From: Squalus acanthias
Lineage: Eukaryota
Direction of reading: 5' to 3'
Assembly: GCA_030390025.1 (NCBI GenBank)
Contig: CM059428.1
Span: 33,356,001 to 33,420,000, forward strand
DNA length: 64,000 bases
The position numbers and the translations under genes are program-made. The stretch's first letter is position 1. Every line of letters starts with the position of its first letter. Below are positions 18,666 through 54,000 of the stretch, in pieces. The notes beneath the pieces were generated by a model that had not been told where the DNA came from, searched no databases, and was given only the letters and a program-made list of their open reading frames with translations.

Positions 18666-19479
18666 TATCTACCCTTTCTTTCTGAGCAAGTTACAATTGT
18701 ATTAATGTAATCCATAAGGCTAGAAGGATCACACATTGTCTTAATTTACCAGTTTAACAACTTGAGGTTTAATTTGTCCTTCCCCAGGGGATGGCACGTG
18801 TTAGATCTCACCTCTATTCTACCACAACTTGCCAGTTCGTTAATCAGCAAGTTGATGAGAGTGGACGAGCACAGGGCAGCCAACTCCACCACTGGGGGTT
18901 TTGGAACAAAACTGAGCTGGGGTCAGGGAGTAAGTTGGGGGTACCACATCTTCTCTGTAAAATGATTTCACCGTATAACGTCAAACTGTCTCTGAATTTA
19001 CTCATGTAGCAGGGTCAATGTGTAAGTAGCTGAGACTTTTGTTGGCTTAAGTTTAGACTATCTACCAGCTGGATTAAAAGGGATTCAATATGGAATTATT
19101 TCAGTTCAATTGTAGGACATACATAGTAGTTTAATTGTCAATCAAGACCCACAATTGGTTGGGGGAACCAAGGTTTTATTTTAACTGTATGAGTATGCAG
19201 TACCATACTACTTCAGTAGGTGTCCTACCAGCATGAGGTGTTCCCATCATACTTCTACATCTAATCCAGGGTTGGGCAATTATTTGGGCTGGAGAGCCAC
19301 TTAACAAGTTTTGGTGAGCTGTTGAGAGCCACACACATAAAATGAATTGTGTTAACAACAGCTACCATTAAAATTTGTTATGGCATTTATTGAATAAAGA
19401 ACGCTTCATGTCATTTCCACACTTAATAAAAAATAACAATTAACATGCTAACAAACACAATACAGGTTTAACTTATCTT

Positions 19480-19565
19480 CACCTGACGAAGGAGCAGCGC
19501 TCCGAAAGCTTGTGATTTCAAATAAAACTGTTGGACTATAACCTGGTGTTGTGCGACTTCTTACA
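19480..19565 (+). mobile_element. 86-bp retroposed insertion with a minimal hammerhead ribozyme motif (19479-19515)
   Basis: 13-bp TSD TTTAACTTATCTT (19467-19479, 19566-19578); motif TCAC-CTGACGA-A-GGAGC-agc-GCTCC-GAAA-GC-TT-GTGA. Confidence 0.75.
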
Positions 19566-19883
19566 TTTAACTTATCTTGACTAATGACTAACTTATCTCA
19601 GTCATTGATATTATGCCATAATTAAAACTGTAAAACTAGTTGCTTGACAAGTACATGTGACTCCAGTCCCATACTATGTTATTGACTTTTAATGTCCTCA
19701 TGGCAACTAGGAATGGGCAATAAATGTTTTCTTACCAATGTTGCCCACATCCCAAGAATTTTTTTTTTAAACATTTCCGATTGTCAAATTTTGGACCCTG
19801 TATTCACCCAGAGGGCTTAAAAGTGACACTTGGGATTATCACAGACTTCAGAAACTAGGCACAAGTATTTGGTGAAACAATAG

Positions 19884-21489
19884 TTCTTCTTCTTCTTAGG
19901 CAGTTCTCAGGTGACTGATGAGTCCAATACGGGACCTACAGTCTCTGTCACAGGTGGGGCAGACGGTGGTTGAAGGGGCGGTGGGTGGGGTGCTTGGGTT
20001 GACATGCGCTCGGCTTCCGCTTGCTCCCGGCGAAGAGACTCGAGGTGTTCGGCGCCTTCCCGGATGCTTCTCCTCCACTTTGTGCGGTCTTGGGCCAGGG
20101 ATTCCCGGGTGTCAGTGGGGATGTTGCACTTTTTCAAGGAGGCTTTGAGGGTGTCCTTGAAGCGTTTCCTCTGCCCACCTGGGCCTCTCTTGCCGTGCCT
20201 GAGCTCCAAGTAGAGCGCTTGTTTTGGGAGTCTCGTATCGGGCATGCGGACGATGTGACCCATCCATCGGAGCTGATCGAGCGTGGTCAAAGCTTCGATG
20301 CTGGGGATGTTGGCCTGAGCGAGAACACTGACGTTGGTGCGCCTATCCTGCCAATGGATTTGCAGGATCTTGCGGAGGCAGCGTTGGTGGTACCTCTCCA
20401 GTGCTTTGAGGTGCCTGCTGTACATGGTCCATGTCTCTGAGGCATACAGCAGGGCGGGTATCACTGCTGCTCTGTAGACCATGAGCTTAGTGCCGGGTTT
20501 GAGGTCCTGGTCTTCAAACACTCTCTTCCTCAGGTGACCGAAGGCTGCACTGGCACACTGAAGGCAGTGTTGGACTTCGTCATCGACGTCTGCGCTGTTG
20601 ACAGTAGGCTCCCGAGGTATGGAAAGTGGTCCACGTTGTCCAAGGCCTTGTCGTGGATTTTGATAATCGGGGGGCAGTACTGTGTGGCGGGGGCAGGTTG
20701 GTAGAGGACCTTTGTCTTACGGATGTTTAATGTAAGGTCCATGCTCTCATACGCTTCGGTGAAGGTGTTGACGATGGTTTGGAGTTCGACCTCTGAGTGA
20801 GCGCAGATGCAAGCATCGTCTGCATACTGTAATTCGACGTCAGAGGATGGGACGACCTTGGATCTGGACTGGAGGCGACGGAGGTTGAACAGTTTCCCGT
20901 TTGTTCTGTAAATTAGCTCCACTCCAGCGGGGAGCTTACTGAGGGTGAGATGGAGCATTGCAGCAAGGAAGATCGAGAAGAGTGTTGGTGCGATGACACA
21001 GCCTTGCTTGACCTCGGTCTGTACGTGAATTGGGTCTGTGGTGGAACCACTGGTCAGGATCACGGCTTGCATGTCGTCGTGAAGCAGGCAGAGGATGGTG
21101 ACAAACTTTTAAGGGCAGCCGAATTTGAGGAGGACACTCCATAATCCCTCATGGTTGACAGTGTCGAAGGCCTTTGTGAGATCAAAGAAGGCCATGTACA
21201 GTGGTTGGTGCTGTTCCCTGCATTTCTTTTGTAATTGACGTGCGGTGAAGATCATGTCCATTGCACCCCTTAGTGGGCAGAATCCGCATTGAGACTCTGG
21301 GTGGAGCTCTTCGGCCACTGGGAGAAGGCGATTGAGGAGGATTCTTGTGATGACTTTCCCTGTGGCAAACAGCAGGAAAACTCCTCTGTAATTATCGCAA
21401 TCGGATTTGTGACCTTTCTTGAAGATGGTCACAATTACGGCGTCTCTGAGATCCCCTGCCATGCTCTCCTCCTTCCAGATAAGAGAAAT
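19884..21489 (-). mobile_element. 5'-truncated RTE-clade (BovB-like) LINE
   Basis: ESQCGFCPLRGAMDMIFTARQLQ, FFDLTKAFDTV, VKQGCVIAPTLF, LQYADD and LLYASETWT motifs; (AAG)n 3' tail at 19884. Confidence 0.92.
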
Positions 21490-23379
21490 GTATAATTTAC
21501 ATGTCAGTGAAAATAATCAGGTAGGAAATGAAGATTCCTACACAATTTATATATTAGACTATGGCAACTTATAGACAAGAGTTTTGATTGACTAGGAGCC
21601 CAAAAGATAAATGCAGAGTGTCGTTAAACATGTCACTGGTTTTCCTTGGGGATGACTCCACAATTCGGCTCTCCCCACTTGATCGTGGAATCAACCCTTA
21701 GAAATGCTGCTGTGATGTAAGGATCTCAGCAATGAGGGAACTTGGGAAGAGGAGAGAGAAAATATCTTACTTAACTTCTGCCAAAATTAAACTATATTTG
21801 AATCAGAATAAATAGACTCTGCAACGATTAATCCGTAATGGATGCATGATACAGACAAATGATTTACTAAGAAAACCACAAATTATATCAAGCCCAGCAT
21901 CATAGGTACAAATGACACACTGACTTGGTTTTTCCATTTAAAAGCCAGCTGCATGGGACCTTCAGAGCGCTGTGTAGCCGCGCAGCTTAAAGGGAACATT
22001 GGTTAGTGTATCTTGATAAAGCCTATCTTTTATTGTGTTTCGTTATAGATGCAATTTAGAATAGCATCCTCTGAACCCACTCGATTGAGTTTTACAATTA
22101 CAACTCAGTACATGAATTAACCACTCAGGTAAATAATACTGCAGTCTAACTCTGCTTAAGTCAGGGACGGTGTGTAAACAGGAAATAATGTCCAGCCAAA
22201 TGTGCAAAATGTTGTCATGTTTGTCCATGATTCAAGAGCTAGAATAGCAACTCAAGGCAATCTATTTATCTTGTGAATTCAGAAACGTCTAAATCTCAGA
22301 ATTTCCCCCCCCCCCCCAAAAAAAAATTCCAGGATTTAGGACCCCAGTTTGAGAACCACTGTGCGGGCCGGATAGAAACCATTGGTGGGCCGGATAGAGC
22401 CCGTGGGCTGTATTTTGCCCACCTCTGATCTAATCCCACTTCCAATACACAGTATGTCAGGTCTGCCTGAATTATCAGGTCAGTTATCTGCTGGTCTCGC
22501 CAAGATACTTGTCCATATGAGTTTGCCTTTGGACAAAGCCAAAACAGGTGGAGTTGGGAGCCTCTTTCAGGAAGAAGATGTGACTCAGTAGAGTTGAAAA
22601 CTGATTAACTCAGTGTACAATCAGAATGATGTCTGCTATATTCCAAGTCTTAGGTTCCTCACCTCACTCCTGCGCTCTGCCACCAAAACAATGACGCTGC
22701 TATACAGAGCTGCAGTGGGACACAGTTATTTACTTCAACTGGGTCTGTTGATCTTAATTTGGAGAACAACACAGAGCAGCTGCTGCTGTTTAAGGACATG
22801 GGCAAATAATCACCCAGTTTTTATCCTCTTGTGCATCATGTGTGCTCTTGTAAATCTCAACCCCTTTTTCTGCTTTATTGGTGGTGTGCTGTTATCTGTG
22901 GGAGCTATTTTGCAGAGACTTGTTTAAATGTTTCCTGCAAATCTTCTTCTAAAATTTCCAGGCTTAATTGATGGGAAATACCTTGCTATCTTCTCTCCAG
23001 GAGATAATAAATCATCAGGGTATGGCCTTGACTCACTTTCACATTATAGTTGCAAGGCTCAGTTGCTGACAGTTAAGCAATCTAAACAATTTTGCATCAT
23101 AGTAATAAAATTTGGGATGTTCAGTCTTTTGTGCTGAGATGGAAGAATCAATTTCAGAATAAGTGCTGGGGCTGCAGAGAGTGAAAGGAGAGAAGGCATT
23201 ATTTATTCCCTCCTAGAATTGATACTGCATTGACATTGCCAAATCATATAAATTGTCTGTAGTAGCTGTGATTTATTTCCTTGCTTGGATCCAAAGATCT
23301 AAACTCTCTAATAGAGCTTCCCTGATAGCCCAGTGCAAGGCAGCTTTAATTTGGTGCCTGATAAGGTTTTTTAGTATAG

Positions 23380-23730
23380 GTCCTATAATAGAAATCTAGT
23401 GGAGTGTACTGGTATTGGGGACTTAGTTGTATCTGGCAGTGAGACTGACTTTTTCAATTTTCTCTTTTCTCCTGGGCTATTCTATAAGTATTGGTGACTT
23501 CTTGGTGGGTCTGCTCCTGAGCTTGGCTAAAACAGCTATTTATAGCTCGAGGGCACGATGGATCTTTGGGGAGGGTCACTCCAATTACTTGCCTCTCACC
23601 CGCGGGCTTGTGAGTGACTCTAGAGAGAGATCACACGGTATGCTCAAAGCCTTCCACGACCAGTGAGAATTACAGGACATCAACGAAAGGAACCAGATCA
23701 TGATTTCATTCTATTTTTATTTGTAATATT
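23380..23730 (+). mobile_element. Probable L1/Tx1-clade ORF2 C-terminal fragment
   Basis: ORF 23427-23666 contains LVGLLLSLAKTAIYSSR, resembling Tx1-type C-termini; heavily decayed. Confidence 0.45.
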
Positions 23731-24138
23731 TTAGTTTGAATGGTTCATGTGACCTCCTGAGGAGGGCACTTTTAGTGATATTTGGCCCTGGTGGCATTGG
23801 GTAGCCCTAGTGCCACTCTATTGGTCCATTTCAAAAGGGTGCGCTGCACTCTGGTACCCCACCAAGTGGCCAATCTTCACATATTGGCCTAGATAGAAAA
23901 GGTTCTCAGGCTGTTGGATCACGGAAGACCAGGCTTGATCCTATTTTCACCTGACATCCACTCATGTACACTTTCCATTAGGAGTCATTACTTTACCAAT
24001 CAAAAGAAAGAACTTGCATTTCTATAGCGGCTTTCTTCACCGTAGGATGTCCTAAAGCGCTTTACAGCCAATGAAGTGTAGTCACTGTTGTAATGTAGAT
24101 AAAGGTTAAGTAATCATGATGTAATCAGGTAAGTACTT

Positions 24139-25479
24139 CACATGGTCCATCTCCGACTCTTCCCTTCCCTTCCTCGACTTCTCCATCTCCATCTCTGGGG
24201 ATAGGTTATTGACTAACATTCACTACAAGCCCACTGACTCCCACAGCTACCTGGACTACACTTCCTCCCACCCCGCCTCCTGTAAGGACTCTATTCCATT
24301 CTCCCAGTTTCTCCGTCTCCGCCGCATCTGCTCTGATGATGCCACCTTCCATACCAGTGCTTCCGACATGTCTTCCTTTTTCCTCAACCGAGGATTCCCC
24401 TCTACCGTGGTCGACACGGCCCTCGACCGTGTCCATTCTATCTCCCGCACTTCTGCCCTCACCCCTGCCCCTCCCTCCCGGAACCACGATAGAGTTCCCC
24501 TTGTCCTCACCTTTCACCCCACCAGCCTCCACATTCAACGGATCATCCTCCGCCATTTCCGCCACCTCCAGCGTGATCCCACCACCAAACGCATCTTCCC
24601 CTCACCTCCCCTTTCAGCATTCGCAGGGACCGCTCCCTCCGCAACACCCTAGTCCACTCCTCTACCACCCCCAGCACCCCTTCCCCTTCGCCCGGCACCT
24701 TCCCGTGCAAGCGCAGGAGATGCAACACATGCCCTTATACCTCCCCTCTTCCCACTGTCCAGGGCCCCAAACACCCCTTCCAGGTAAAACAGCGATTTAC
24801 TTGTACTTCCTGCAATTTAGTATACTGTATTCGCTGCTCACGATGTGGTCTCCTCTACATTGGGGAGACCAAACGCAGATTGGGTGACCGCTTTGCGGAA
24901 CACCTCCGTTCAGTCCGTAAGGGGGACCCCGAGCTCCCAGTCGCCTGTCACTTTAATTCTCCGCTCCACTCCCACTCTGACCTCACCGTCCTCGGCCTAT
25001 TACACTGTTCCACAGAAGCGCAGCGTAAGCTCGAGGAACAGCACCTCATCTTTCGTTTAGGCACGCTACAGCCCTCTGGACTCAATATCGAGTTCAACAA
25101 TTTTAGATCATAACCTCAGCCCCTATCACATTTATATTTTATTTTTTCATCCACCCTTTTGTTTGCCCCCCCCCTTTTTTCCCTCCTAGAAGCTGGCAGC
25201 TGTCCTTCATTCTGCCAGTGCATTTCACACTTCTTTTAACCTCAACCTGTCACATTAACACCACCTCTTGCCTTGATCATCTCTTAATGTCTCTTAATCT
25301 CTCCTTTTGTTCTTTCATCCCCTCCCCATTTTCCCAGCTTTATCCTTGCCTTAAATCTATTTCATTTCCTGCTATTTCCAGTTCTGACGAAAGGTCTTCG
25401 ACCTGAAATGTTAACTCTGTTTCTCTCTCCACGGATGCTGCCTGGCCTGCTGAGTTTTTCCAGCGTTTTCTGTTGTTAT
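24139..25479 (+). mobile_element. 5'-truncated Penelope-like element (RT C-terminus, GIY-YIG endonuclease, 3' hammerhead motif at 25380-25416)
   Basis: FLDFSI...YKPTDSHSYLDYTSSHP; CKRRRCNTC; LVYCIRCSRCGLLYIGETKRRLGDRFAEH; 9-bp TSD TAAGTACTT (24130-24138, 25480-25488); one frameshift near 24620. Confidence 0.92.
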
Positions 25480-25721
25480 TAAGTACTTGTACCAACTCTG
25501 TATGGAGTTATGCTACACTGGACAGCAGTTCCATCCACAAGGTCTTTGGAGCTTGAGATAGGTCGCTGTCTTCCAGGGGATGCTATGACTTCCATTTTGT
25601 GTACATTTTCTGAGTCATTTATGAATACATCATCAAAATGAGCATTGCCTCTCATAGCTACCTTGGTGGACTGGGTCAAGGAGCAATCATGCATTACATT
25701 TACCAATAATCATTCTAAACC

Positions 25722-26549
25722 AGAAAATGCTGGAAACACTCAGCAGGTTAGGCAGCAGCTGTGGAGAGAGAAACAGAGTTAACTTTTCACTGAGGTGCTG
25801 TTCCTCAAGCTTGCGTTGAGCTTCATTGGAACAGTGTAGGAAGCCAAGGACAGGGAGGTTACAGTGGGAGTGGGATGGAGAATTAAAGTGGCAAGCGACC
25901 GGAAGCTCAGGGTCACACAAGCTCGAGGAACAGCACCTCCTCTTTCTACTAGGCACTTTACAGCCTCCGGTCTTAACATTGAGTTTAACGACTATAGACC
26001 TTAACCACCACTCCCATTTTCTCTCAGCACTAGAGCCACTGGAAGTGGAGAAGGTGTGGGGTGGTACTTGGAGGGTCCCCTATCGGTACATGGCCAGTGG
26101 GCTGGTCCGCATCCCTGGGGCCTACCTACCTTTCTCCTGCCATATTCCTGTGCCATGGGGCCTTCCTATCTTTGCCACATTTTCCATGCTTCCCTTCTCC
26201 TCTGCTATTCTGCTGTAACCATTTACACTTCCTCTGAACCTATCTTTTGTTTCTTTATTTGTCTCATTATCACCTCATTTTGTCTGACTTTTATCATTTA
26301 ATCACTCCTGCCCTTCGCAGACCTTTCCCTTTTGTTCTTTTCCTGCCCCATTTTCCCTGGCTCTACGTTTGCTTAAAAGTTGTTCATCGCTAACATCTTC
26401 CAGTTCTGGTGAAAGGTCATCTACCTGAAACAAAATGACTCTGTTTCTCTCTCCACAGATTCTGTCTGACCTGCTGAGTATTTCCAGCATTTTCTGTTTG
26501 TTTGTTTCAGATTTCCAGCATCTGCAGAATATTTTTCTTTTGTTTTGTG
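25722..26549 (+). mobile_element. Penelope-like 3' fragment with an inverted 5' segment (25722-~25915 on -)
   Basis: 10-bp TSD ATTCTAAACC (25712-25721, 26550-26559); KLEEQHL occurs on both strands; degenerate hammerhead motif at ~26402-26430. Confidence 0.85.
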
Positions 26550-28224
26550 ATTCTAAACCTATTCGGTTAATTGAAGTCTCCCATTAAAATAACTTTCCTG
26601 TTCTTGTATATCCTTTCTATAACAAATTGTCTTCCTTCTGATGCGGACCTGATGGTCTATAGTTCACCATCCTGTAGGTATTGCCCTTATAACACGCATG
26701 GATATCTATTTCACTGAGTAAAATCCCCATTGACTACAATCTATGAGCTGCAAACTGCATCTTAGTCCAGGCTGTCCTCTCCAGCTTTCGAACTACTTTT
26801 TCTTCTGGGACCTTTTTTCCTTCTGTAATGTTAGTCAGTGCCTGGTATCTATTCGCTAATGTAATTTCTTGAGTAGCCTCACTGGGTTTCCTACCTTTCT
26901 TGCTTCTTTTACCAACCTTAATCTATCCAGTATCCCAATTTCTTTGTCTCCTCTCAGCACTTGTCTCTGCATCATGACAACCCTATTCCTGATTGTACAA
27001 CTCTCCAGCTCCAATCCCTGAAGATTTTCTCCCGAGGGCTAATTCTAGCCTGAGATGACGCACTTAACAGAATACTGTCCATTTGGCCTCAATAATCGCT
27101 CACTTGTAAGCCCTTTATAAGTTCCTGTACTTTGCTCTCTAAGGCCATAACTCTTTCTTTAAGCTTATTGATTAACAGACAGTTTTTTTTCTATTGGAGA
27201 TGGCTTTTTCATTTCTGAACATCCTACAGTAAACACACCCTATAGTCTACATTGTAGCTACACTTCTCTTGGCTGTGTCCCCCCCCCCCCCCCCATTAGT
27301 TTTATTTTAAAAAATGTTCTCCATTGACTTTACTTACTTGCCACATTTTAATTTTTGCTTTTCTCACAGGCTCCTTTTTACTACCCTTGAGGACATTATC
27401 AGATTTGTTGAATTCAATTTCAAAAATTTTCCATGGTGAGATTTGAACTCATGACCTGTGGGTTGCTAGTCCATGCACTGTAACCACTACACTACTGTAC
27501 CCATTCATTCTATAGTGGTCAGTTGCAAATACAAGGAATCCCAGCTGGTTTGTTTTAGAAAGGAAGATTGTGTTAAATAATCTATCCAGGCAGAATCTTT
27601 TTCATGTCCTACAGATTGACCTAAAACTGAAGTCTGAAATTCTTCTAACACCCTACAGGTATCTTACTACAGCAAAAAGTATAACGTAGTTAGGCATCTT
27701 CCAGCTAGAGGGAGATTCAGTAATGGGAAATCCAAATTATAGAGTGGATTGAAGAACCTACAAGGCTGCGGACCAAGAGCTGGAACGTGGGATTAGGCTG
27801 GATAGCTCTTTTTCGGCCGGCACAGACATCATGGATCGAATGGCCTCCTTCTGTGCTGTAAATTTCTATGATTCTATTTAAGGAAATGGGAAGAAAAGTG
27901 TTTAAGAAAATTTTGTACAAATATATTGATGTTAAGACTATGCATAATGCTCCCAGTGCTAACTTAAATAAATATAACCTAAAGGGCCATTATTTGACCC
28001 ATTTCCCTAGAGAACTACTTCTAGAAAGAGTTGGAGGGAAAACCTATATTCAAAATTTTTATAGCATCAATTAATGGATGTACTTGTTCAACCAAGACAG
28101 CCAACAGGGATTTGAACATTCTGTCTACAGCCTTTAAATGGTAGACAATCTGGCTTATGTCTGTCTTGGTCTAGTACAAGAATGATGTACATACAACTAG
28201 AAGATCTGCACATCCTCGTGAAGA

Positions 28225-28740: not shown

Positions 28741-29129
28741 ATGTTGCTGAACGTAGACCATTTGTCACATGACAAATGCTTGTGCTGACAATTGAGCTGA
28801 GATGTTACTACATGTCCTCTGGAAATCTTCTGGGATGGTTCCACTTTGGACTGAGGTTTTATAACCAGGCTACTGCATCTGTTAAAGTGAGAGCACTGTA
28901 ACCTAATGCTGCAACTTTCTTCACTCATTAGAAATGACAGCCACGAGTATACACGCCCAAAATCATCCTGCCCTCATGTGTACCTTTTGTTAAACATGCC
29001 TCCTACTTCAGGGGCAGGATGCTTTACTCCGGTTTGTCCGGCAGTGGATTAATGTATAAAAACACAAGATTTCCTAGGTCGTGGATAATTTTTGTTGTTG
29101 AGCTAATTCATATCTATATAGTTAAAAGT

Positions 29130-29264
29130 TCTGATGAAAGGTCGTCGACCTGAAACATTAACTCTGTTTCTCTCTCCACAGATGCTGCCTGACCTGCTGA
29201 GTATTTCCAGCATTTTCTGTTTTTATTTCAGATTTCCAGCATCTGCAGTATTTTACTTTTGTTT
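29130..29264 (+). mobile_element. 135-bp Penelope-derived insertion starting at a hammerhead core (motif 29127-29163)
   Basis: 11-bp TSD TAGTTAAAAGT (29119-29129, 29265-29275); AGTT-CTGATGA-A-AGGTC-gtc-GACCT-GAAA-CA-TT-AACT; the remainder matches the PLE tails at 25380-25479 and 26400-26549. Confidence 0.85.
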
Positions 29265-29479
29265 TAGTTAAAAGTCTTGGTTGAACGTGAATAAGCCAAC
29301 AGCAGCTTCTTATCCAGCCCTATATTCTATTGTGGATTCCTATGGCTATTAGTTGAAATAGAAATCCTTTGTGGGAAATTTGTCAAATGTTAGCCAAGAT
29401 CTTCCCTTCTCCTGGCTATTTTATATTAAGTTATTGCTATACAGGTACTCCTCCAACCTGTTTTTTTCAAACTCCATCC

Positions 29480-29935: not shown

Positions 29936-29941
29936 GATATC

Positions 29942-40845: not shown

Positions 40846-40910
40846 GTGAGTAGCACGCGCGCCGCCGGAACCCCAACTCACCGACGGGAACCTCAGCTGG
40901 GGGAGAGCTG

Positions 40911-43900
40911 AGGGCATGGATGGGGGGAGGAGAGAGGGGGCATGGATGGTGTGCAGGAGAGAGGGGGCATGGATGGTGTGCAGGAGAGAGGGGGCATGGA
41001 TGGGGGGAGGAGAGAGGGGGCATGGATGGTGTGCAGGATTAAGGGGGCATGGATGGTGTGCAGGAGAGAGGGGGCATGGATGGTGTGCAGGAGAGAGGGG
41101 GCATGGATGGGGGGAGGAGAGAGGGGGCATGGATGGTGTGCAGGAGAGAGGGGGCATGGATGGTGTGCAGGAGAGAGGGGGCATGGATGGTGTGCAGGAG
41201 AGAGGGGGCATGGATGGTGTGCAGGAGAGAGGGGGCATGGATGGTGTGCAGGAGAGAGGGGGCATGGATGGTGTGCAGGATTAAGGGGGCATGGATGGTG
41301 TGCAGGAGAGAGGGGGCATGGATGGGGGGAGGAGAGAGGGGGCATGGATGGTGTGCAGGATTAAGGGGCATGGATGGTGTGCAGGAGAGAGGGGGCATGG
41401 ATGGTGTGCAGGAGAGAGGGGGCATGGATGGTGTGCAGGAGAGAGGGGGCATGGATGGTGTGCAGGAGAGAGGGGGCATGGATGGTGTGCAGGAGAGAGG
41501 GGGCATGGATGGTGTGCAGGAGAGAGGGGGCATGGATGGGGGGGAGGAGAGAGGGGGCATGGATGGTGTGCAGGAGAGAGGGGGCATGGATGGTGTGCAG
41601 GAGAGAGGGGGCATGGATGGGGGGGAGGAGAGAGGGGGGGCATGGATGGGGGGGAGGAGAGAGGGGGGGCATGGATGGGGGGGAGGAGAGAGGGGGGGCA
41701 TGGATGGGGGGGAGGAGAGAGGGGGGGCATGGATGGGGGGGAGGAGAGAGGGGGGCATGGATGGGGGGGAGGAGAGAGGGGGGGCATGGATGGGGGGGAG
41801 GAGAGAGGGGGGGCATGGATGGGGGGGAGGAGAGAGGGGGGGCATGGATGGGGGGGCATGGATGGGGGGGGAGGAGAGAGGGGGGGCATGGATGGGGGGG
41901 AGGAGAGAGGGGGCATGGATGGGGGGAGGAGTGAGGGGGGGCATGATGGGGGGAGGAGAAGGGGGGGGCATGGATGGGGGGGAGGAGTGGAGGGGGGGGC
42001 ATGGATGGGGGGGAGGAGAGAGGGGGGGCATGGATGGGGGGAGGAGAGGGGGCATGATGGGGGGGAGGAGAGAGGGGGCATGGATGGGGGGGAGGAGAGA
42101 GGGGGGGCATGGATGGGGGGGAGGAGAGAGGGGGGGGCATGGATGGGGGGGAGGAGAGAGGGGGGGCATGGATGGGGGGGGAGGAGAGAGGGGGGGCATG
42201 GATGGGGGGGCAGAGAGAGGGGGGGCATGGATGGGGGGGAGGAGAGAGGGGGGGCATGGATGGGGGGGAGGAGAGAGGGGGGGCATGGATGGGGGGGAGA
42301 GAGAGGGGGCATGGATGGGGGGAGGAGAGAGGGGGCATGGATGGTGTGCAGAGAGAGGGGCATGGATGGTGTGCAGGAGAGGGGGCATGGATGGTGTGCA
42401 GGAGAGAGGGGGCATGGATGGGGGGGGAGGAGAGAGGGGGCATGGATGGTGTGCAGGAGAGAGGGGGCATGGATGGGGGGGAGGAGAGAGGGGGGGCATG
42501 GATGGGGGGGAGGAGAGAGGGGGGGCATGGATGGGGGGGAGGAGAGAGGGGGGGCATGGATGGGGGGAGGAGAGAGGGGGGGCATGGATGGGGGGGAGGA
42601 GAGAGGGGGGGCATGGATGGGGGGGAGGAGAGAGGGGGGGCATGGATGGGGGGGAGGAGAGAGGGGGGGCATGGATGGGGGGGGAGGAGAGAGGGGGCAT
42701 GGATGGGGGGAGGAGAGAGGGGGCATGGATGGTGTGCAGGAGAGAGGGGGCATGGATGGGGGGGGAGGAGAGAGGGGGGCATGGATGGTGTGCAGGAGAG
42801 AGGGGGCATGGATGGGGGGGAGGAGAGAGGGGGGCATGGATGGTGTGCAGGAGAGAGGGGGCATGGATGGTGTGCAGGAGAGAGGGCATGGATGGGGGGA
42901 GGAGAGAGGGGGCATGGATGGTGTGCAGGAGAGAGGGGGCATGGATGGTGTGCAGGAGAGAGGGGGCATGGATGGTGTGCAGGAGAGAGGGCATGGATGG
43001 GGGGAGGAGAGAGGGGGCATGGATGGTGTGCAGGAGAGAGGGGGCATGGATGGTGTGCAGGAGAGAGGGGGCATGGATGGTGTGCAGGAGAGAGGGGGCA
43101 TGGATGGTGTGCAGGAGAGAGGGGGCATGGATGGTGTGCAGGAGAGAGGGCATGGATGGGGGGAGGAGAGAGGGGGCATGGATGGTGTGCAGGAGAGAGG
43201 GGGCATGGATGGTGTGCAGGAGAGAGGGGGCATGGATGGTGTGCAGGAGAGAGGGGGCATGGATGGTGTGCAGGAGAGAGGGGGCATGGATGGGGGGAGG
43301 AGAGGGGGGCATGGATGGTGTGCAGGAGAGAGGGGGCATGGATGGTGTGCAGGAGAGAGGGGGGCATGGATGGTGTGCAGGAGAGAGGGGGCATGGATGG
43401 TGTGCAGGAGAGAGGGGGCATGGATGGGGGGAGGAGAGAGGGGGCATGGATGGGGGGAGGAGAGAGGGGGCATGGATGGTGTGCAGGAGAGAGGGGGGGC
43501 ATGGATGGTGTGCAGGAGAGAGGGGGGGCATGGAGGAGGGGGCGGAGAGGGGGGGCATGGATGAGGGGGAGGAGAGAGGGGGCATGGATGAGGGGGAGGA
43601 GAGAGGGGGGGGGCATGGATGAGGGGGAGGAGAGGGGGGGGCATGGATGAGGGGGAGGAGAGAGGGGGGGGCATGGATGAGGGGGAGGAGAGAGGGGGGG
43701 CATGGATGAGGGGGAGGAGAGAGGGGGGGCATGGATGAGGGGGAGGAGAGAGGGGAGGCATGGATGAGGGGGAGGAGAGAGGGGGGGGCATGGATGAGGG
43801 GGAGGAGAGAGGGGGGGCATGGATGAGGGGGAGGAGAGGGGGGGCATGGATGAGGGAGGAGAGAGGGGGGGGCATGGATGAGGGAGGAGAGAGGGGGGGG

Positions 43901-46900
43901 CATGGATGAGGGGGAGGAGAGAGGGGGGGGCATGGATGAGGGGGAGGAGAGAGGGGGGGCATGGATGAGGGGGAGGAGAGGGGGGGGCATGGATGAGGGG
44001 GAGGAGAGGGGGAGCATGGATGAGGGGGAGGAGAGGGGGGCATGGATGAGGGGGAGGAGAGAGGGGGGGCATGGATGAGGGGGAGGAGAGAGGGGGGGGC
44101 ATGGATGAGGGGGAGGAGAGAGGGGGGGGCATGGATGAGGGGGAGGAGAGAGGGGGGGGCATGGATGAGGGGGAGGAGAGAGGGGGGGGCATGGATGAGG
44201 GGGAGGAGAGAGGGGGGGGCATGGATGAGGGGGAGGAGAGAGGGGGGGCATGGATGAGGGGGAGGAGAGAGGGGGGGCATGGATGAGGGGGAGGAGAGAG
44301 GGGGGGGCATGGATGAGGGGGAGGAGAGAGGGGGGGGCATGGATGAGGGGGGAGGCATGGATGAGGGGGAGGAGAGGGGGGGGCATGGATGAGGGGGAGG
44401 AGAGAGGGGGGGGCATAGATGAGGGGGAGGAGAGAGGGGGGGGCATGGATGAGGGGGAGGAGAGAGGGGGGGGCATGGATGAGGGGGAGGAGAGAGGGGG
44501 GGCATGGATGAGGGGGAGGAGAGAGGGGGGAGGAGAGGGGGGGCATGGATGAGGGGGAGGAGAGAGGGGGGCATGGATGAGGGGGAGGAGAGAGGGGGGC
44601 ATGGATGAGGGGGCGGAGAGAGGGGGGGCATGGATGAGGGGGAGGAGAGAGGGGGGCATGGACGAGGGGGAGGAGAGAGGGGTGGCATGGACGAGGGGGA
44701 GGAGAGAGGGGTGGCATGGACGAGGGGGAGGAGAGAGGGGGGGCATGGATGAGGGGGAGGAGAGAGGGGGGGCATGGATGAGGGGGAGGAGAGAGGGGGG
44801 GCATGGATGAGGGGGAGGAGAGAGGGGGGCATGGAGATGGGGGAGGGGGAGGAGAGGGGGGGATGGATGGGGGGAGGAGAGGGGGGGATGGATGGGGGGG
44901 AGGAGAGGGGGGGATGGATGGGGGAGGAAAGGGACGCGGGGAGAGAGCGGGGGGGAGGTGGCAGGAAAGGGACATGAGAGCGGGGGGGCAGGAAAGGGAC
45001 ATGGGGAGAGAGCGGGGGGGTGTCAGGAAAGGGACGCGGGGAGAGCGAGGGGCAGGAAAGGGACATGGGGAGGGGGCAGGAAAGGGACATGAGAGCGGGG
45101 GGGCAGGAAAGGGACATCGGGAGAGAGCGGGGGGGTGGTGCAGGAAAGGGACATGGGGAGAGAGCGGGGGGAGGGGGCAGGAAAGGGACATGGGGAGAGA
45201 GCGGGGGGCAGGAAAGGGACATGGGGCGAGAGCGGGGGGGGAGGGGGCAGGAAAGGGACATGGGGAGAGAGCGAGGGGCAGGAAAGGGACATGGGGAGAG
45301 AGCGAGGGGCAGGAAAGGGACATGGGGAGAGGGAGAGGGAGGGGGCAGGAAAGGGACGCGGGGAGAGAGCAGGGGGGCAGGAAAGGGATGCGGGGAGAGA
45401 GCGGGGGGGCAGGAAAGGGACATGGGGAGAGAGCGGGGGGAGGGGGCAGGAAAGGGACATGGAGCGGGGGGGGAGGGGGCAGGAAAGGGACATGGGGAGA
45501 GAGCGGGGGGAGGGGGCAGGAAAGGGACATGGAGCGGGGGGGAGGGGGCAGGAAAGGGACGCGGGGAGAGAGCGAGGGGCAGGAAAGAGACGCGGGGGGG
45601 CAGGAAAGGGACGCGGGGAGAGAGCGGGGGGGCAGGAAAGGGACGCGGGGAGAGAGCGGGGGGGCAGGAAAGGGACGCGGGGAGAGAGCGGGGGGGCAGG
45701 AAAGGGACGCGGGGAGAGAGCGGGGGGGGCAGGAAAGGGACGCGGGGAGAGAGCGGGGGGGGCAGGAAAGGGACGCGGGGAGAGTGCGGGGGGGCAGGAA
45801 AGGGACATGGGGCGAGAGCAGGGGGGCAGGAGAAGGACATGGGGCGAGAGCGGGGGAGGCAGGAAAGGGACATGGGGCGAGAGCGGGGGGCGAGAGCGGG
45901 GAGCGGGGGGGCAGGAAAGCGACATGGGGCGAGAGCGGCGGGGAGGGGGGCAGAAAAGGGACATGGGGCGAGAGAGGGGGGATGGGGCAAGAAAGGGACA
46001 TGGGGCGAGAGAGAGGGGCAAGAAAGGGACATGGGGCGAGAGAGGGGGTAGGGGGGCAAAAAAAGACATGGGGCGAGAGCGGGGGGGGAGCGGGCAGGAA
46101 AGGGACATGGGGCGAGAGCGGGGGGGAGCGGGCAGGAAAGGGACATGGGGCATGAGCGGGGGGGGCAGGAAAGGGACATGGGGCGAGAGCGGGGGGTGGA
46201 GGGGGGCAGGAGAAGGACATGGGGCGAGAGCGGGGGAGGCAGGAAAGGGACATGGGGAGAGAGCGGGGGGGGGCAGGAGAGGGACATGGGGCGAGAGCGG
46301 GGGGGAGGGGGGCAGGAAAAGGACATGGGGCGAGAGTGGGGGAGGCAGGAAAGAGACATGGGGCGAGAGCGGGGGAGGCAGGAAAGGGACATGGGGAGAG
46401 AGCGGGGGGGCAGGAGAGGGACATGGGGCGAGAGTGGGGGGCAGGAGAAGGACATGGGGCGAGAGCGGGGGAGGCAGGAAAGGGACATGGGGCGAGAGCG
46501 GGGGGCGAGAGCGGGGAGCGGGGGGGCAGGAAAGCGACATGGGGCGAGAGCGGGGGGGAGGGGGGCAGAAAAGGGACATGGGGCGAGAGAGGGGGGATGG
46601 GGCAAGAAAGGGACATGGGGCGAGAGAGAGGGGCAAGAAAGGGACATGGGGCGAGAGAGGGGGTAGGGGCGCAAAAAAAGACATGGGGCGAGAGCGGGGG
46701 GGGAGCGGGCAGGAAAGGGACATGGGGCGAGAGCGGGGGGGAGCGGGCAGGAAAGGGACATGGGGCATGAGCGGGGGGGGCAGGAAAGGGACATGGGGCG
46801 AGAGCGGGGGGTGGAGGGGGGCAGGAGAAGGACATGGGGCGAGAGCGGGGGAGGCAGGAAAGGGACATGGGGAGAGAGCGGGGGGGGGCAGGAGAGGGAC

Positions 46901-48740
46901 ATGGGGCGAGAGCGGGGGGGAGGGGGGCAGGAAAAGGACATGGGGCGAGAGTGGGGGAGGCAGGAAAGAGACATGGGGCGAGAGCGGGGGAGGCAGGAAA
47001 GGGACATGGGGAGAGAGCGGGGGGGCAGGAGAGGGACATGGGGCGAGAGTGGGGGGCGAGAGCGGGGAGCGGGGGGGCAGGAAAGCGACATGGGGCGAGA
47101 GCGGCGGGGAGGGGGGCAGAAAAGGGACATGGGGCGAGAGAGGGGGGATGGGGCAAGAAAGGACATGGGGCGAGAGGGGGGATGGGGCAAGAAAGGGACA
47201 TGGGGCAAGAAAGGGACATGGGGCGAGAGAGGGGGTAGGGGGGCAAAAAAAGGGACATGGGGCGAGAGCGGGGGGGGAGCGGGCAGGAAAGGGACATGGG
47301 GCGAGAGCGGGGGGGAGCGGGCAGGAAAGGGACATGGGGCATGAGCGGGGGGGGCAGGAAAGGGACATGGGGCGAGAGCGGGGGGGCAGGAAAGGGACAT
47401 GGAGAGAGAGTGGGGGGGCAGGAAAGGGACATGGGGAGAGAGTGGGGGGCAGGAAAGGGACATGGGGCGAGAGCGGGGGAGGGCGGCAGAAAAGGGACAT
47501 GGGGCGGGGGTGAGGGGCCGAAAAGGGACATGGGGCGAGAGCGGTGGGGGAGTGGGCATGAAAGGGACATGGGGCGAGAGCGGGGGGTGAGGGGGCAGAA
47601 AAGGGACATGGGGTGAGAGAGGGGGAGGGGGGCAGAAAAGGGACATGGGGCGAGAGGGGGGAGGCGGGCAGAAAAGGGACATGGGGCGAGAGCGGGGGGC
47701 GAGGGGGGCAGGAAAGGGACATGGGGCGGGGGAGGGGGGCAAGAAAGGGACATGGGGTGAGAGGGGAGGGGGGCAAGAAAGGGACATGGGGCGAGAGCGG
47801 AGGGGTGGCAGGAGAGGGACATTGGGCGAGAGCGGGGGGGCAGGAGAGGGACATGGGGCGAGAGTGGGGGGGGCAGGAGAGGGACATGGGGAGAGCGGGG
47901 GGAGCAGGAGAGGGACATGGGCGAGAGGGAGCAGGAGAGGGACATGGGGTGAGAGCGGGGGGGCAGGAGAGGGACATGGGACGGGGGCAGGCGAGGGACA
48001 TGGGCGAGAGGGGGGCAGGAGAGGGACATGGGGCAAGAGCGGGGGGGGCAGGAGAGGGACATGGGGCAAGAGCGGGGGGGGCAGGAGAGGGACATGGGGC
48101 GAGAGCGGGGGGGCAGGAGAGGGACATGGGGAGAGAGCGGGGGGAGCAGGAGAGGGACATGGGACGGGGGCAGGCGAGGGACATGGGCGAGAGGGGGGCA
48201 GGAGAGGGACATGGGGCGAGAGCGGGGGGGGGTACGAGAGGGACATGGGACGGGGGCAGGCGAGGGACATGGGCGAGAGGGGTGCAGGAGAGGGACATGG
48301 GGCGAGAGGGGCAGGAGAGGGACATGGGGCGAGAGCGGGGGGTCAGGCGAGGGACATGGGGTGAGAGGGACATGGGGCGAGAGCGGGGGGTCAGGCGAGG
48401 GACATGGGGCGAGAGGGGGGCAGGCGAGGGACATGGGGTAAGGGGGGGGCGGGAGAGGGACATGGGACGAGAGGGGGGGCAGGCGAGGGACATGGGGCGA
48501 GAGCGGGGGGTCAGGCGAGGGACATGGGGCGAGAGGGGGGGCAGGCGAGGGACATGTGGCGAGGGGGGGCAGGAGAGGGACATGGGGTGAGGGGGGCGGG
48601 AGAGGGACATGGGGCGGGGGCGGGAGAGGGACATGGGGCGGGGGCAGGAGAGGGACATGGGGCGGGGGCAGGAGAGGGACATGGGGCGAGGGGGGGCAGG
48701 AGAGGGACATGGGGCGAGAGTGGGGGGGGGTGCAGGAAAG
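40911..48740 (+). repeat. ~7.8 kb G/purine-rich compound minisatellite (~27-31 bp units)
   Basis: Units GGGGGCATGGATGGTGTGCAGGAGAGA, then GnCATGGATGAGGGGGAGGAGAGA, then GnCAGGAAAGGGACATGGGGCGAGAGC, decaying into purine-rich sequence to ~49900. Confidence 0.97.
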
Positions 48741-50952
48741 GAATGTGGGGGCGAGAGCTGGTGGCAGGAGAGGGGGTCATGGGAAGATCTGGAGACAGGA
48801 GAATGGGGACATGGGCAGAATCTGGAGACAGGACAGTGGAGACCTGGGGGTTCTGGAGAGTGGGGACATTCGGAGCTGGGGATAAGGGAGTAGCATGGGG
48901 GATCGAGAGGGGACATGGGATCTAGGCAAGAGAGTGAGGCATTGGGTGATTTGGAAACAGAAGAGTGGGGACGAGTGAGAGGGGACATGGGTAGGATCTA
49001 GAGACAGGAAAGTAGCACTGGGGGGGGGGGGGTGGGATTTGGAGAATGGGGGCATGCGGTGGTAGGGATGGGAGAGAGGGACTTGGGGGATCTGGAGACA
49101 GGAGAGTGGGGACTTCTGGAGCTGAGGACAGCACAGTGGGTTAGGGTGATTTGGAGACAGGATAGTAGGGACATGCGGAGCTGGGGCAGGAGAGGGGGCA
49201 TCTGGAGACGGGTAAGTTGGAACAGGACAGGAGAGTAGAGGCTGGTGACTGGGAATTTGAGTCATGGGGAATTTGTTTGCAAGGAAGCTGGGGGTTGGGT
49301 GATCTGGGGACAAGAAAGGTACCACAGGGGATGTAAAGACGAGTGTGGGGACATGGAAGGCTGGGGACCGGAGCGTAGAGGCAGGCTATAGGGAAGAGTC
49401 ATGGAGGATCCGGGCGTATGAGGTCAGGGATGGGAGATCTGGGGACAGGAGGCATAGGAGAACTGGTGCCTGGGAGGGCAGCAGATTGAGGAGAACAGGA
49501 GACTGGGGCATGCAGGGAATAGGAGATGAGGGGTGGGTGGGTGGAGGGGTTGGGGAGGCTGAGACATGGATAGAACAGGGAATTCACTCATGGTGGAGGG
49601 TGATGGGGGTTGCAGGCGGTTGGGGAATTCAGAGAACAGGACATGGCGGGGGGAGCAGGGAAGACAAGAGTGGGGGCTTGAAGTACAACAGGAGGTAAAG
49701 GAGGAACCAGGAAAGTGTGGGCATATGGGAGTAAGTAGGATAACTAAGGGTCTGGCCTGATGGGAGGCTAGAGATTGGAGATGGGGGCAAGATTAGGCAA
49801 AGGACAAGACATTGAGCATGTGACGCAGGAGACTGGGAAAGGAGTCAGGGAAGAGATGCATTGTTTAGTATGGACTGGTCATACAGAGCAGAAGATGGAG
49901 GAGATAGGCATACAGTATATTGGGAAGACTTGGGCAGGATCCTTTCCCTCTTGTACCTGATGTAAGGCTCCTGGTGTGAAACCATGTTAATGGGCAGTGT
50001 TAATAAATGAGTGGATTTGGGAAAATTTTCATTCAAGCTCTCTTGGGATCTGTGAAAATGAGCACATTTGAACATGAGCACATGATCAGGCGGATGTCAG
50101 GACGCTGACTATTCATTGGGCTCGGAGAGTACAGGAAATATGGCAGTTTAACTGCTGTGGTCTGCTGCATTTGCACAATGTTCCTCTTTTTAAAAAAAAA
50201 ATTGCCAGGATTACTTAACTATGTAAACTCAGCAGAGCAAAGATCATTATCATTATCCCTATCTCTGCTTGTGGATCACTTAACAATAGTTGGCAGCTTG
50301 ATTTGATTCAAATATAAAAATTTAGAAAAAAAATGCCTGTGAAAAATGAGAGGCGTGATTACAGTAACGTGTTAGGATTTTAAGGGTATGCGAGAGAGCT
50401 TTGTTCTGCAGAGGGCAAAGTTGGTTGATATAAATTGAGAAAACAGGCTGAGATTGATTTTGCAGTTGGTAGGTTTCCATCTGTAGCTTGTAGAACTGTT
50501 GATGGTTTGACAGTTATTGTCTTTGACCTAAGGTTTTACTTCAAAAATATGTTATTAAAATATTGCAAAAGTGTTTGTTCATGTCTTTCATATCTGACAC
50601 TTGTATAAAAGTTACATACTAGTAAGTTTAATGGTTGAGAAGAACTTGTCTCATATGTGTGTTATGGTGCTGCTATTCATATCTGACAGCAAATTATATA
50701 AAAAGATGTATACTGTTGAGCAGTGGAGCCTAATGGTTGAGAAAAAGTTGGGGCAGTATATCCATGTTTGATAGTAACATGCCCAATGACTGATTTAAGG
50801 CTCCAAATAGACACCTTGGAGAGGATCCAAGGTGTCCAAATTGAATGATTTGCTAATTATAATAGCATGAATACATGAAGGGTAATTCATTCAAATGCAT
50901 ATAGTGAGGACCATGTAATTATCAGATGTTTGCAAAACATGTTAATGACCTT

Positions 50953-51057
50953 TGGTAATAAAAACAGAAAATGCTGGAAATACTCAGCAGGGCAGGCAGC
51001 ATATGTGGAGCGAGAAACCATTAACGTTTCAGGTCAATGACCTTTCAGTCTTTTGTA
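50953..51057 (-). mobile_element. 105-bp Penelope-derived insertion truncated within the hammerhead core
   Basis: 11-bp TSD TTAATGACCTT (50942-50952, 51058-51068); minus strand reads TGAAAGGTCattGACCTGAAACGTTAA followed by the PLE tail. Confidence 0.75.
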
Positions 51058-54000
51058 TTAATGACCTTCGGGGCAGGTCAATCTCACTGCACCAACCTTT
51101 TCTCCATTTTGGCTTTTTGAATCCAGTATTGGACCCCTAAAAATTGAATACAGATCTCTGAATGGATGGCTTATAGTTCTAGAATTTTTATGATGATAAA
51201 GCAACCAATGATGTTTCAAAAATATGGTATATATTTGAACTTTATATTCAAGAAAATTTGCAATGGTTGCAGTTGTTATCCACATAAGAGACATAACAGA
51301 AATAGGGCCGTGGCACTTCAATGGGATGACTAGCAACTTGAGATATTTCACTAAAGTGCAAATGTAATGACAGAATTGTTTTTTTTTAAACAGTAGAATG
51401 GTGTACATACAACCTTTCATTTACTAGTTTGACATTTCATAGGGTTAATAATATAACATAGTATGTGCTGGGGGTAGGGTCTATATAATATGAATATGAG
51501 ATGCTGTATACCCTCAGCTATTGCATTACTATCACCTTTATTGCCCCTTTCCCTACATCAACTCCACTGTGTTAAACGTACAAATACGCTATTAAACGAT
51601 CATATGGGCCACCCCTGCTTATGTACTGAATCCCAAACTTGAGCCCTCCCCCCACCCCACCCTGGAACAATAATTGGCTCACATGTAGGCTGCACCCCCA
51701 ATGAAATACCTTTTTTCTTGCTTTAAGAAAATGCAGCCTATATGTGAGTCAACAGGATATTTATTAAAAAGAATAGCCAGAATCTGGCACTTGGACTGAC
51801 CATAACTCAGTCTCTGGGTTCTCTGCTGGTGTTATTAAACTCTAGTTTTCTTGTGGTTTATGACATTGCAACCGTTTCACTGAATTATGCCTTGGGTCCC
51901 TGTGTCAACTATTTATCATATATTTCCCGCTCCATATAGGGTCATATGGTAATTTTCACTCCTTTAAGAAATGCTTGCATTTTAAATTATTACTTCTACT
52001 TTTATTTGTCTAAAGCCCTTTTTAATTTATATATGCGTTAAGGTGTCTTGTCTATTACTAGTGAAATTTTGTTTAAAGCCCTTTATTTCTTTGAATGTAT
52101 ACGTATGCTAAGGGTGTCTTATTGATTTACTGCTGGTGAAATTTTAATAATGCTTATCCTGTATCTAACTCACAGTATCCCCATAAATAATCATGAGGGG
52201 CTGATCTTAACCCTCTTGGTTTCAGTGTAAGATCTGCCGTGTAAAATTGACTAACTTGCATCTACCACTCCATTCCTGGGTGTACTAATTGAATTGTTCT
52301 GTTAGAAAGGCAATGTGTAGTGATAATTATGTTTCCCTATTAGCATATCTGCCAATTTAGTTACCCCTCTGTGGTGCACTGGAAGATGATGAGCTGTTTG
52401 GCAGAACTGTCTCTGTTGGTTTCCATTTTAGAATCTAGAACCAGTACTGTTCTGAGGGTAGATTGACATGCAAGTTCCAAATTCCAGAATTATAAAGTGC
52501 TGAGTTAACCAGTGACGAGCCCTCTCTCTTGACCCATAGAAAGCGAGAGTGGTTGCCTTCTTGCATGAGGAACATCCTGTACAAATGGGGAATCCAGACA
52601 CTGTTTTAGTTTGGATCTGTTACTGCCACTGTAGAAAAGGATATATTTAGTCAGAAATAGGTAAAATTAAATAGGTACAATAATGTGATCAGATGCATTT
52701 TCATTGTTTGATAATGGTCTGGCATTTAATAATTGTTTAAATGTATTAAACACCCCTTAAATTATCAGTCATCAACTATCTGCTCTTGTTTGTATTTATA
52801 CAGTAGAGAGCAACGATGCAAATCTAATTTATGGGACGTGCTTGTGCATCTTATCGATTGATAATTGTAACAAGTTTACATGCTTCATTGTTGTCTGCAG
52901 TTGAAATACTGTAAATGTCTTCTGTTTATCAATGTCAAACTGGTCAGGATCATTTACTAGTCTCAACACATTCCTGTAAAAGAACAAGGTGCAGCCATTT
53001 GTTGGCAGATATTTATTAGCTGGGTTTAATGTTCTTTATCTCTACGCCAGTTAATACAATTTTTGCATACCGGTTAGTAAATTTTTATCATTGTGGGGAA
53101 GCTAACCTGTTCATATTGCATCATTTTTTATAATATGTGAATTTATATAGTGTCTTATCACATCTCCGTGTTTCACAAAATGAATTACTTTTGGAGTGCA
53201 ATGACTGTTATGTAGGCTCATTTTTTGTCGTCATCTTTGCCCTCCCAGCCCTGCCTTGCAATAACACAACCGAGTCCTGTCGTTTTCTGTGCATATTGGA
53301 TTGCTCTTCATACCTCCTGAAAATAAAGTTTGACTCTTGAGCAACGGTCTTTATTAATGATTTGAGTGCACTGCTAGTAAAATATTACTCTTCATATTTA
53401 TTTTAAAGGCAAGAGAAGCTCTGGGTATTGATTTTAAGTATAGTCATTTATAACCTGATTATACTGTTGAAGTGTGCGTGAATGTATGCACTTTGGTAAG
53501 CTGCCAGTTAAAGATTTTATTTATGTTGGCCCCGGTCATTTCTTTCTTTTTCACCAGTGTTATCACAAGTGAAAGTAGGACTGCAATCATTGCTTCCCCA
53601 CAGTCAGGTTTGTGCTGTATTTTAAGTGGAAACCTGGGAATTTGTACAGCAAGCTTAGTTATGGTTGTGACTACAATTTTAACTGCTAAATGTGTTGCAA
53701 GCAAGGCCAGAAAAGAGAATTATAGCAATCTGCAGCAAAGATGCTGGTGGGGTGAGCGAAGTGATGCAGAGAGGAAAACAAATCAAAACAAGACAGTAAC
53801 TTGTCATACTATTGTATATCAACAACAACTTGCATTTATATAGCCCCTTTAACATAGTAAAATGTCCATGCCTTTAAGGAGCATCTTAAAGGAGGAGCGA
53901 GAGGCAGAGGGAGGGAATCCCAGAGCTTGGGGCCTAGACATCTGAAGGCACAGCCAATGATAGTGTGAAGGAAATCAGTGTTTCAGAGCTTTGTTGCAAT

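Follow-up and report, generated by a model that had tools for sequence, protein, structure and literature searches.

Short insertions of two Penelope-like elements in Squalus acanthias end beside a hammerhead core, at a promoter-like position that likely marks a capped RNA start

Penelope-like elements (PLEs) of the endonuclease-bearing (EN+) Neptune type combine a reverse transcriptase (RT) with a C-terminal GIY-YIG domain, separated by a CX2-5CxxC linker, and carry a hammerhead ribozyme in direct repeats; their copies may also display a 30-40 bp tail, an inverted 5'-truncated copy and a short target-site duplication (TSD) (PMC8557442, PMC3846280). We analyzed a 64,000-nucleotide stretch of Squalus acanthias DNA (assembly GCA_030390025.1, contig CM059428.1, forward-strand positions 33,356,001 to 33,420,000; 'the window'), in which three short insertions, A, B and C, are stubs of the terminal repeats of two autonomous PLEs of 3.1-3.2 kb (families A and B) that share these features. 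For EN+ PLEs, the 5' ends are described as variable truncations and the palindromes are attributed to antisense self-priming (PMC8557442, PMC3846280); in the shark families, by contrast, 5' ends peak at one base and bear an extra G, which argues for a capped sense template. The polarity of the PLE template, the origin of the palindromes and the role of the hammerhead have all been called open (PMC3846280, PMC8557442, PMC11167929).

Several described systems share parts of this anatomy. PAc, the Poseidon element of Anolis carolinensis, likewise has two internal priming sites that define its tail, with both target strands nicked and extended; uncleaved RNA is its main template, and no reads end at the cleavage site, as is the case here (PMC11167929). 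On the other hand, PAc belongs to the Poseidon clade and its open reading frame (ORF) starts inside the hammerhead, whereas the ATG of shark family A lies 120 nt behind the core, at the end of the tail. The minimal hammerhead ribozymes (min-HHRs) of metazoan PLEs (PMC4209133) have the same core, an extra base before stem II, a G10.1-C11.1 pair, a palindromic, loopless stem III and a short stem I, and they are mostly solitary, or close together and on opposite strands, as here; the shark motif is identical in kind, and what we add is that it stands where the mRNA is predicted to begin. Full-length L1 and SVA insertions likewise show an extra G at the RNA start and joints with 1-3 nt of microhomology (PMC3287187), but here the cap would be reached by stubs of 85-140 nt rather than by full-length copies. 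Non-LTR (long terminal repeat) retrozymes are likewise small and non-coding, with a type I hammerhead, and are related to PLE repeats (10.64898/2026.07.22.740005); they form tandem arrays with a hammerhead in each unit, whereas the shark stubs are single or head-to-head and flanked by TSDs.

The preliminary description of the window had predicted that 5' breakpoints would pile up near the hammerhead core instead of spreading smoothly, and when breakpoints were plotted for both families this proved to be real genome-wide. The genome of 3.7 Gb contains 100,586 exact matches to a 22-nt family-A tail word and 20,227 to a 29-nt family-B word. Break rates come from arms chosen solely by a tail word within 1.2 Mb of sequence, made up of the window, 21 arbitrary 10-kb stretches and successive tail-pattern hits along C1. 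Their 5' ends were mapped against long copies, the C of CTGA being position 0; loci that had been selected on 5' features were excluded (the 30 best BLAST loci and the junction-pattern loci L151-L211 and L271-L340), and 2 of 143 family-A hits and 1 of 159 family-B hits were dropped for short flanks. In family A, 23 of 141 arms end at -9 to -6, 13 of them at -7; the break rate per base at risk is 0.064 in this peak, compared with 0.0046 upstream (a 14-fold difference) and 0.0062 downstream. The corresponding family-B peak, at -5 to -2, holds 26 of 158 arms, with rates of 0.080 in the peak, 0.0041 upstream (20-fold) and 0.010 downstream. Each peak is significant at a binomial p < 1e-14, for peak windows chosen from the data, and is still present in non-inverted arms (A, 5/77; B, 17/106). 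The summit lies 7 nt before CUGA in family A and 3-4 nt before it in family B; the first 100 of 6,227 hits to a family-B word have ends at -2 (19), -3 (28), -4 (22), -5 (18), -6 (9) and -7 (4).

A TATA box at a spacing of -30 and an initiator consensus are the standard accompaniments of a transcription start. In long copies of both families the peak base follows the start of a TATA-like box by 30-32 nt, and it is an A in an initiator-like context in 61 of 65 family-A and 40 of 41 family-B copies. The offset between peak and core differs between the families (-7 versus -4/-3), whereas that between peak and TATA-like box is constant, at about 30 nt. The base that precedes the peak is also distinctive: for one family-A subfamily word, counted genome-wide, a purine stands before -7 in 3,071 arms (81 G and 19 A in the first 100) and before -8 in 457 arms (55 G : 45 A), while C, G or T stands before -6 in 2,485 arms (20 G in the first 100). 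We estimate from these values about 2,500 G-preceded copies at -7, versus 250 at -8 and 500 at -6; the G share expected from the composition of the partner arm is 45%, and the excess observed at -7 has a p of 2e-13. At 71 junctions, from 70 of the first 100 loci, the extra base is untemplated in 24 (19 G and 5 A; p 0.003), templated by the partner arm in 36 (31 G and 5 A) and ambiguous in 11; a T stands ahead of the G in 12 of the 17 junctions that have at least two untemplated bases, and at L340 both arms reach -7, each bearing an extra G. In a hand tally of the first 100 of the 6,227 family-B hits, 13 of the 22 ends at -4, and 13 of the 28 at -3, have a G directly before them.

Thus, both families show a sharp end at a promoter-like start together with an untemplated G, strongly in A and more weakly in B. 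In L1 and SVA insertions, an untemplated 5' G has been ascribed to copying of the cap (PMC3287187). Taken together, the shifting core offset, the constant offset to the TATA-like box and the extra G indicate that the capped start of the RNA would set the peak, which, as judged from sequence, likely marks the start of transcription of the element mRNA; the hammerhead, which would be the foremost structure of that mRNA, would for this reason coincide with the 5' boundary. The same three observations do not support the suggestions, made in the preliminary description, that the 5' end is set by the ribozyme fold, through RT termination or template jumping, or by a circular or multimeric template. 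As a separate observation, at L302 and L103 a G and then a putatively cap-ended arm stand directly behind element sequence in the same orientation (the ORF start region in L302, the 3' untranslated region (UTR) in L103); each junction looks like a template jump from the cap.

Several observations weigh against a capped start as the origin of the peak. Most of the sample comes from a single chromosome, from its first 22 Mb, and the arms of a twin pair are not independent of each other. Short arms that end downstream of the peak outnumber the peak arms (A, 39 versus 23; B, 67 versus 26), so trimming or premature stops are common, and 98 of 299 sampled arms continue beyond the start by over 100 nt, so a further template is in use as well. 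The family-B box, TTAAAA, is a non-canonical TATA; the G excess in this family is weaker and split over two positions; 31 of the 57 G junctions can be explained by the partner arm too, and the extra G is found in none of the three window insertions. As to transcripts, 24 runs were considered, as contigs only, one of them recorded as RNA: a site where many molecules begin was not seen in four contig-only runs, one of them of unknown kind, and although depth rises at the predicted start in 4/4, this bears neither for nor against. A TATA box with an initiator-like TCACT has already been noted in a rotifer pseudo-LTR (PMC3846280). Such a layout is not universal: in D. virilis the internal promoter of Penelope lacks a TATA box and comes with an intron (PMC2377424). 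A start-site peak or a cap G in PLE insertions was not found in the titles, abstract openings or passages of the literature searched; subscription journals fall outside its coverage, and an earlier description is possible.

In both families the 3' ends fall into two classes some 35-40 nt apart (sites 1 and 2, the latter with the tail), and arms of both classes reach the start with G (17 and 37). We also considered that tail-bearing arms might never pass the start; this was rejected, both end classes being found in peak and long copies. Among 108 inverted family-A pairs (all loci collected, including feature-selected ones), 97 consist of one short arm ended at site 1 and one tail arm ended at site 2. 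Their two arms share the allele of a 55:45 polymorphism in 81 of 86 pairs, whereas random templates would differ in 52%; a derivation of twin arms from two random RNAs, for which linked sites should be discordant at that rate and not in 5/86, is unsupported. The pairs are consistent with priming twice on a single capped sense RNA, or on RNAs with a common source, and not with fold-back on an antisense template. The anole PLE protein, too, primes at two internal sites and extends both strands, yielding a product that shortens as the RNA is truncated from its 5' end (PMC11167929). In four short inverted copies (L274, L275, L291 and L294) the 3' end lies beyond the tail, 49-59 nt past the ORF-start word; these may reflect a third priming site within the ORF, to which only the 5' repeat or a tandem would give access.

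Also of interest, hammerhead loop II differs between the two arms in 20 of 57 inverted family-A pairs (e.g., L007, L012, L106, L158 and L307) even though linked polymorphisms agree, in a sample skewed to one loop allele. Most of these differences are one and the same 1-nt indel, the tail arm bearing an additional A in 6 pairs and the short arm an additional C in 5. This discordance could stem from an RT error hotspot at the loop or from the use of two RNAs from closely related sources; an error hotspot, if real, could explain the variability of min-HHRs remarked upon previously (PMC4209133).

The hammerhead itself is of the minimal type I with a palindromic stem III, as originally proposed. 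In insertion A it occupies 19480..19515 on the plus strand (assigned by sequence, fold and descriptor), with stem I at 19480-82/19512-14, the core at 19483-89, stem II at 19491-95/19499-503, GAAA at 19504-07 and a palindromic AGCU stem III; the predicted cut follows 19511. A custom-built descriptor of this motif fits 64 of 65 long copies of family A and 38 of 41 of family B; stem I is paired in 95% of long copies and stem II in 99%, and family A contains a compensatory change in stem I (TCAC/GTGA to TTAC/GTAA). An intact min-HHR is absent from the other two window insertions: the core of C is broken, and B (core 29131-37, stem II 29139-43/29147-51, GAAA 29152-55) has lost the stem III palindrome through one change. 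A scan against Rfam gave six matches at E values up to 5, none of them a hammerhead and all far under the gathering score. Single-strand folds of the ribozyme regions were no more stable than shuffled sequences (z from -0.05 to -1.3, and -2.1 for the complete B stub); a dimer-type motif is expected to behave in this way, and we do not count this as evidence. The predicted cleavage site lies at +28/+29, that is, 32-35 nt downstream of the 5'-end peak, and no peak of ends is seen there: only 712 arms genome-wide leave the family at +26 to +28, point mutations included, with a purine directly before the cut in 25 of the first 100. Scaled by word frequency (23/95 versus 70/134 arms), ends at the cleavage site are some 25-30 times rarer than those at -7. 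The preliminary statement that simple self-cleavage does not set the 5' boundary is borne out.

Copies that carry the ORF behave differently from the stubs. A family-A ORF-start word has 108 exact matches, and of 30 loci examined, 21 extend at least 390 nt into the ORF, the other nine stopping 49-106 nt past the word. Among the 15 ORF-bearing copies that reach -6, none stops at -9 to -6, whereas 23 of 102 do so in the general sample (Fisher p 0.04); the set is small, may include two pairs of related copies and has one locus cut off by a gap. These data suggest that ORF-bearing copies use a template that is continuous across the start, either a circle or a read-through RNA. A circle closed at the cleavage site reads like the genomic repeat, so back-junction reads are uninformative.

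From the anatomy, the peak, its TATA/initiator-like spacing, the G excess, the two 3' end classes and their pairing, and the null result at the cleavage site, we infer promoter activity, a cap and an order of steps. With good confidence, we propose that the stubs are run-off cDNAs from a capped sense mRNA, primed at internal sites 80-140 nt behind the predicted cap. The RT/GIY-YIG protein would nick both target strands 11-14 bp apart and prime within the 5' repeat copy, at site 1, site 2 or both; RT would then copy through the uncleaved hammerhead to the cap, often adding a C opposite the cap and then an A. In simple stubs such as A and B, the cDNA end would anneal to the target through 1-3 nt of microhomology, with a few bases trimmed; in head-to-head pairs it would anneal instead to the second cDNA, insertion C being such a pair with a tiny second arm. 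Without a TATA box, the stubs are probably dead ends. Retroviral minus-strand strong-stop DNA is a short cDNA that extends from an internal primer to the cap, and L1 twin priming employs two primers per insertion; in the shark, however, nicked target DNA would prime at fixed internal sites, without poly(A) or tRNA. A broader scheme is possible, and we hold it only tentatively: in a strong-stop-like first step, a protein dimer would initiate synthesis twice within the 5' repeat of a single capped sense mRNA and run off its cap, giving rise to most genomic copies, whereas ORF-bearing copies would derive from a cap-free continuous template, either a hammerhead-cut, ligated circle or a read-through multimer.

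Other explanations account for parts of these data. If, during copying of the 3' repeat of a long RNA, RT stalled or jumped at the hammerhead fold or at a protein bound there, the stubs would be ordinary 5' truncations with a structural hotspot. In favor of this, neither family has its peak more than 7 nt from the core, break rates are somewhat higher within the ribozyme region than upstream (A, 0.0062 versus 0.0046; B, 0.010 versus 0.0041), and arms of one insertion often differ in loop II (20/57 pairs). However, a polymerase that travels 3' to 5' is expected to halt at the 3' foot of a stem, not after its full unwinding, and the family-A peak is 3 nt beyond stem I; moreover, the core offset varies between families while that to the TATA-like box does not, the extra G is not predicted, and ORF-bearing copies cross the same fold with 0/15 stopping. 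We therefore consider a stall unlikely. Self-cleavage, or a circle or multimer made by it, might be invoked because the motif is conserved and stem I covaries, because the anole hammerhead cleaves with help from protein (PMC11167929), and because circles have been proposed as PLE templates (PMC4209133). Yet the cut would fall 32-35 nt downstream of the peak, where ends are some 25-30 times rarer than at -7, and a circle offers no end at which RT could stop; as an origin of the stubs this reading is already contradicted, and we find it scarcely credible as the source of the 5' ends, although it may hold for long copies.

The preliminary description suggested non-autonomous, ribozyme-headed mini-elements, which in a SINE- (short interspersed element) or retrozyme-like manner would have a short transcript of their own. 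Copy number is indeed very high (100,586 and 20,227 exact tail words, versus 108 for one family-A ORF-start word), and non-autonomous PLE derivatives are known (10.64898/2026.07.22.740005; PMC8557442). The stubs nevertheless match the terminal repeats of full-length autonomous elements and have loop variants in common with long copies; their 5' and 3' ends differ from copy to copy rather than being fixed and their own; neither the upstream box nor the downstream stretch of ORF required by the anole protein (its first 172 nt; PMC11167929) is present in them, and some short copies extend about 50 nt into the ORF. Nor do they resemble non-LTR retrozymes, with tandem units that each hold a complete hammerhead: sampled copies are single or head-to-head, and no tandem stub array was found in the 64-kb window. 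An origin as mini-elements is thus very unlikely. Equally, the boundary could be a 3' splice site, the stubs copying spliced RNA: family B has an acceptor-like sequence at -2 (a pyrimidine tract and CAG before the core), and the intron end of the D. virilis element maps to helix I (PMC4209133). A constant upstream exon is, however, absent from 30 family-B junction loci and from 100 listed words, and the family-A peak has no AG. Head-to-head pairs could alternatively arise by self-priming on an antisense template, as proposed for PLE palindromes (PMC3846280), but the extra G sits on the sense 5' end, and fold-back copying does not predict that both arms end at fixed priming sites, as they do in 97/108 pairs. 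We regard both the splicing and the antisense routes as most improbable.

The parents of the stubs place them among PLEs, in agreement with the Penelope RT/GIY-YIG origin first suspected: full-length copies of family A (L211; a 3107-nt unit with a hammerhead in both direct repeats and its ATG where the tail ends, 120 nt behind the core) and of family B (L120; a 3198-nt unit with direct repeats) each carry RT and GIY-YIG in broken frames. Domain matches comprise RVT_1 in L211 (E 3e-10) and GIY-YIG at window positions 24577-25110 (E 1e-4). In addition to RT and C-terminal GIY-YIG, both families show the hammerhead-bearing pseudo-LTRs, optional tail, inverted 5' copy and 11-14 bp TSDs of EN+ PLEs. 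The linker that joins RT to EN reads C-x4-C-x2-C in both, and CX2-5CxxC is a mark of Neptune (PMC8557442); by this sequence feature, we classify both as EN+ PLEs of probable Neptune type. The nearest named proteins to the family-A ORF come from sharks, at up to 92% identity across 70% of the query, and no named Neptune reference is among the 120 homologues listed. The elements and ribozymes themselves are of known kinds (PMC4209133). In the 3' UTR of L211, about 270-330 nt before the core, there is also a degenerate family-B-like repeat segment (80% over 44 nt), behind a hammerhead-like hairpin.

All three window insertions stand as described, with exact TSDs. Insertion A (19480..19565, plus strand) is a family-A terminal-repeat stub that runs from the predicted transcription-start region to priming site 1, without tail, between 13-bp TSDs at 19467..19479 and 19566..19578; the last 3 nt of the left TSD are also element positions -6 to -4 (microhomology). 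Insertion B (29130..29264, plus strand) is a family-B stub with tail, ended at priming site 2, between 11-bp TSDs at 29119..29129 and 29265..29275; here the last 3 nt of the left TSD are also element positions -4 to -2, the predicted first three bases of the RNA. Insertion C (50953-51057, minus strand) has a direct family-B arm at 50956..51047 that starts in the core (at +4, or at 0 with a 3-nt loss) and ends at priming site 1. Its TSD is 11 bp if exact, as first reported, but 14 bp (50942..50955 on the 3' side and 51058..51071 on the 5' side, both read on the minus strand) if one CpG-type mismatch is allowed. The roughly 10 nt once described as filler are in fact the reverse complement of the end of the family-B tail, that is, the stub of an inverted second arm (51050..51060, plus strand), which shares 3 nt with the TSD. 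At 10 of its 11 bases, the C target site (51058-51068) is identical to the stem II region of the element itself.

Several earlier statements about these insertions hold in part. A and B do begin 3 and 1 nt before CTGAnGA, and C inside the core, but microhomology allows A to reach to -6 and B to -4. There are two families; however, B and C belong to the same one, and the proteins of families A and B, at 31-37% identity, are not unrelated. The coincidence of 5' end and core applies to three of six window copies once three omitted family-B copies are counted, of which two pass through the core (25383 and 26405) and one breaks at +20 (25717-25789). CTGANGA itself occurs in the window at chance level (40 observed versus 41.8 expected). 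The caution that three cases are only suggestive was well placed: 37 of 88 short family-A arms and 42 of 112 short family-B arms end at -9 to +4 anyway.

The omitted pieces cluster within 2.4 kb (24136-26546). A 5'-truncated family-B element (24136..25481, plus strand; a 1.35-kb 3' end) comprises the RT thumb, a CxxxxCxxC linker, GIY-YIG and the 3' UTR and continues through the core, with a TATA-like box at 25351-55, an initiator-like A at 25380 and the hammerhead core at 25384-90. It is followed by the family-B arm that breaks at +20 (25717..25789, minus strand), fused to inverted family-B coding sequence, and by a family-B copy with tail (26315..26546, plus strand) that passes a mutated core and reaches about -91. 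Elsewhere in the window, positions 40900-48860 form an 8-kb purine-rich minisatellite with 27- and 33-bp units and a GC skew of up to 0.85; its long stop-free frames on both strands are probably an effect of composition.

With more than 100,000 young copies, this genome is a record of PLE replication intermediates. Finding the cap mark at a start with TATA box and initiator speaks for a capped sense template, primed at two sites on one RNA, and against antisense self-priming; the absence of the start stop from ORF-bearing copies suggests a second template. If this two-template reading is true, the hammerhead at the front of the mRNA would be a switch from a dead-end to a replicative template, and the palindromes would require no antisense RNA. 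The extra-G signature lets the transcription starts of PLEs be mapped from DNA alone, and makes the open questions of their replication testable.

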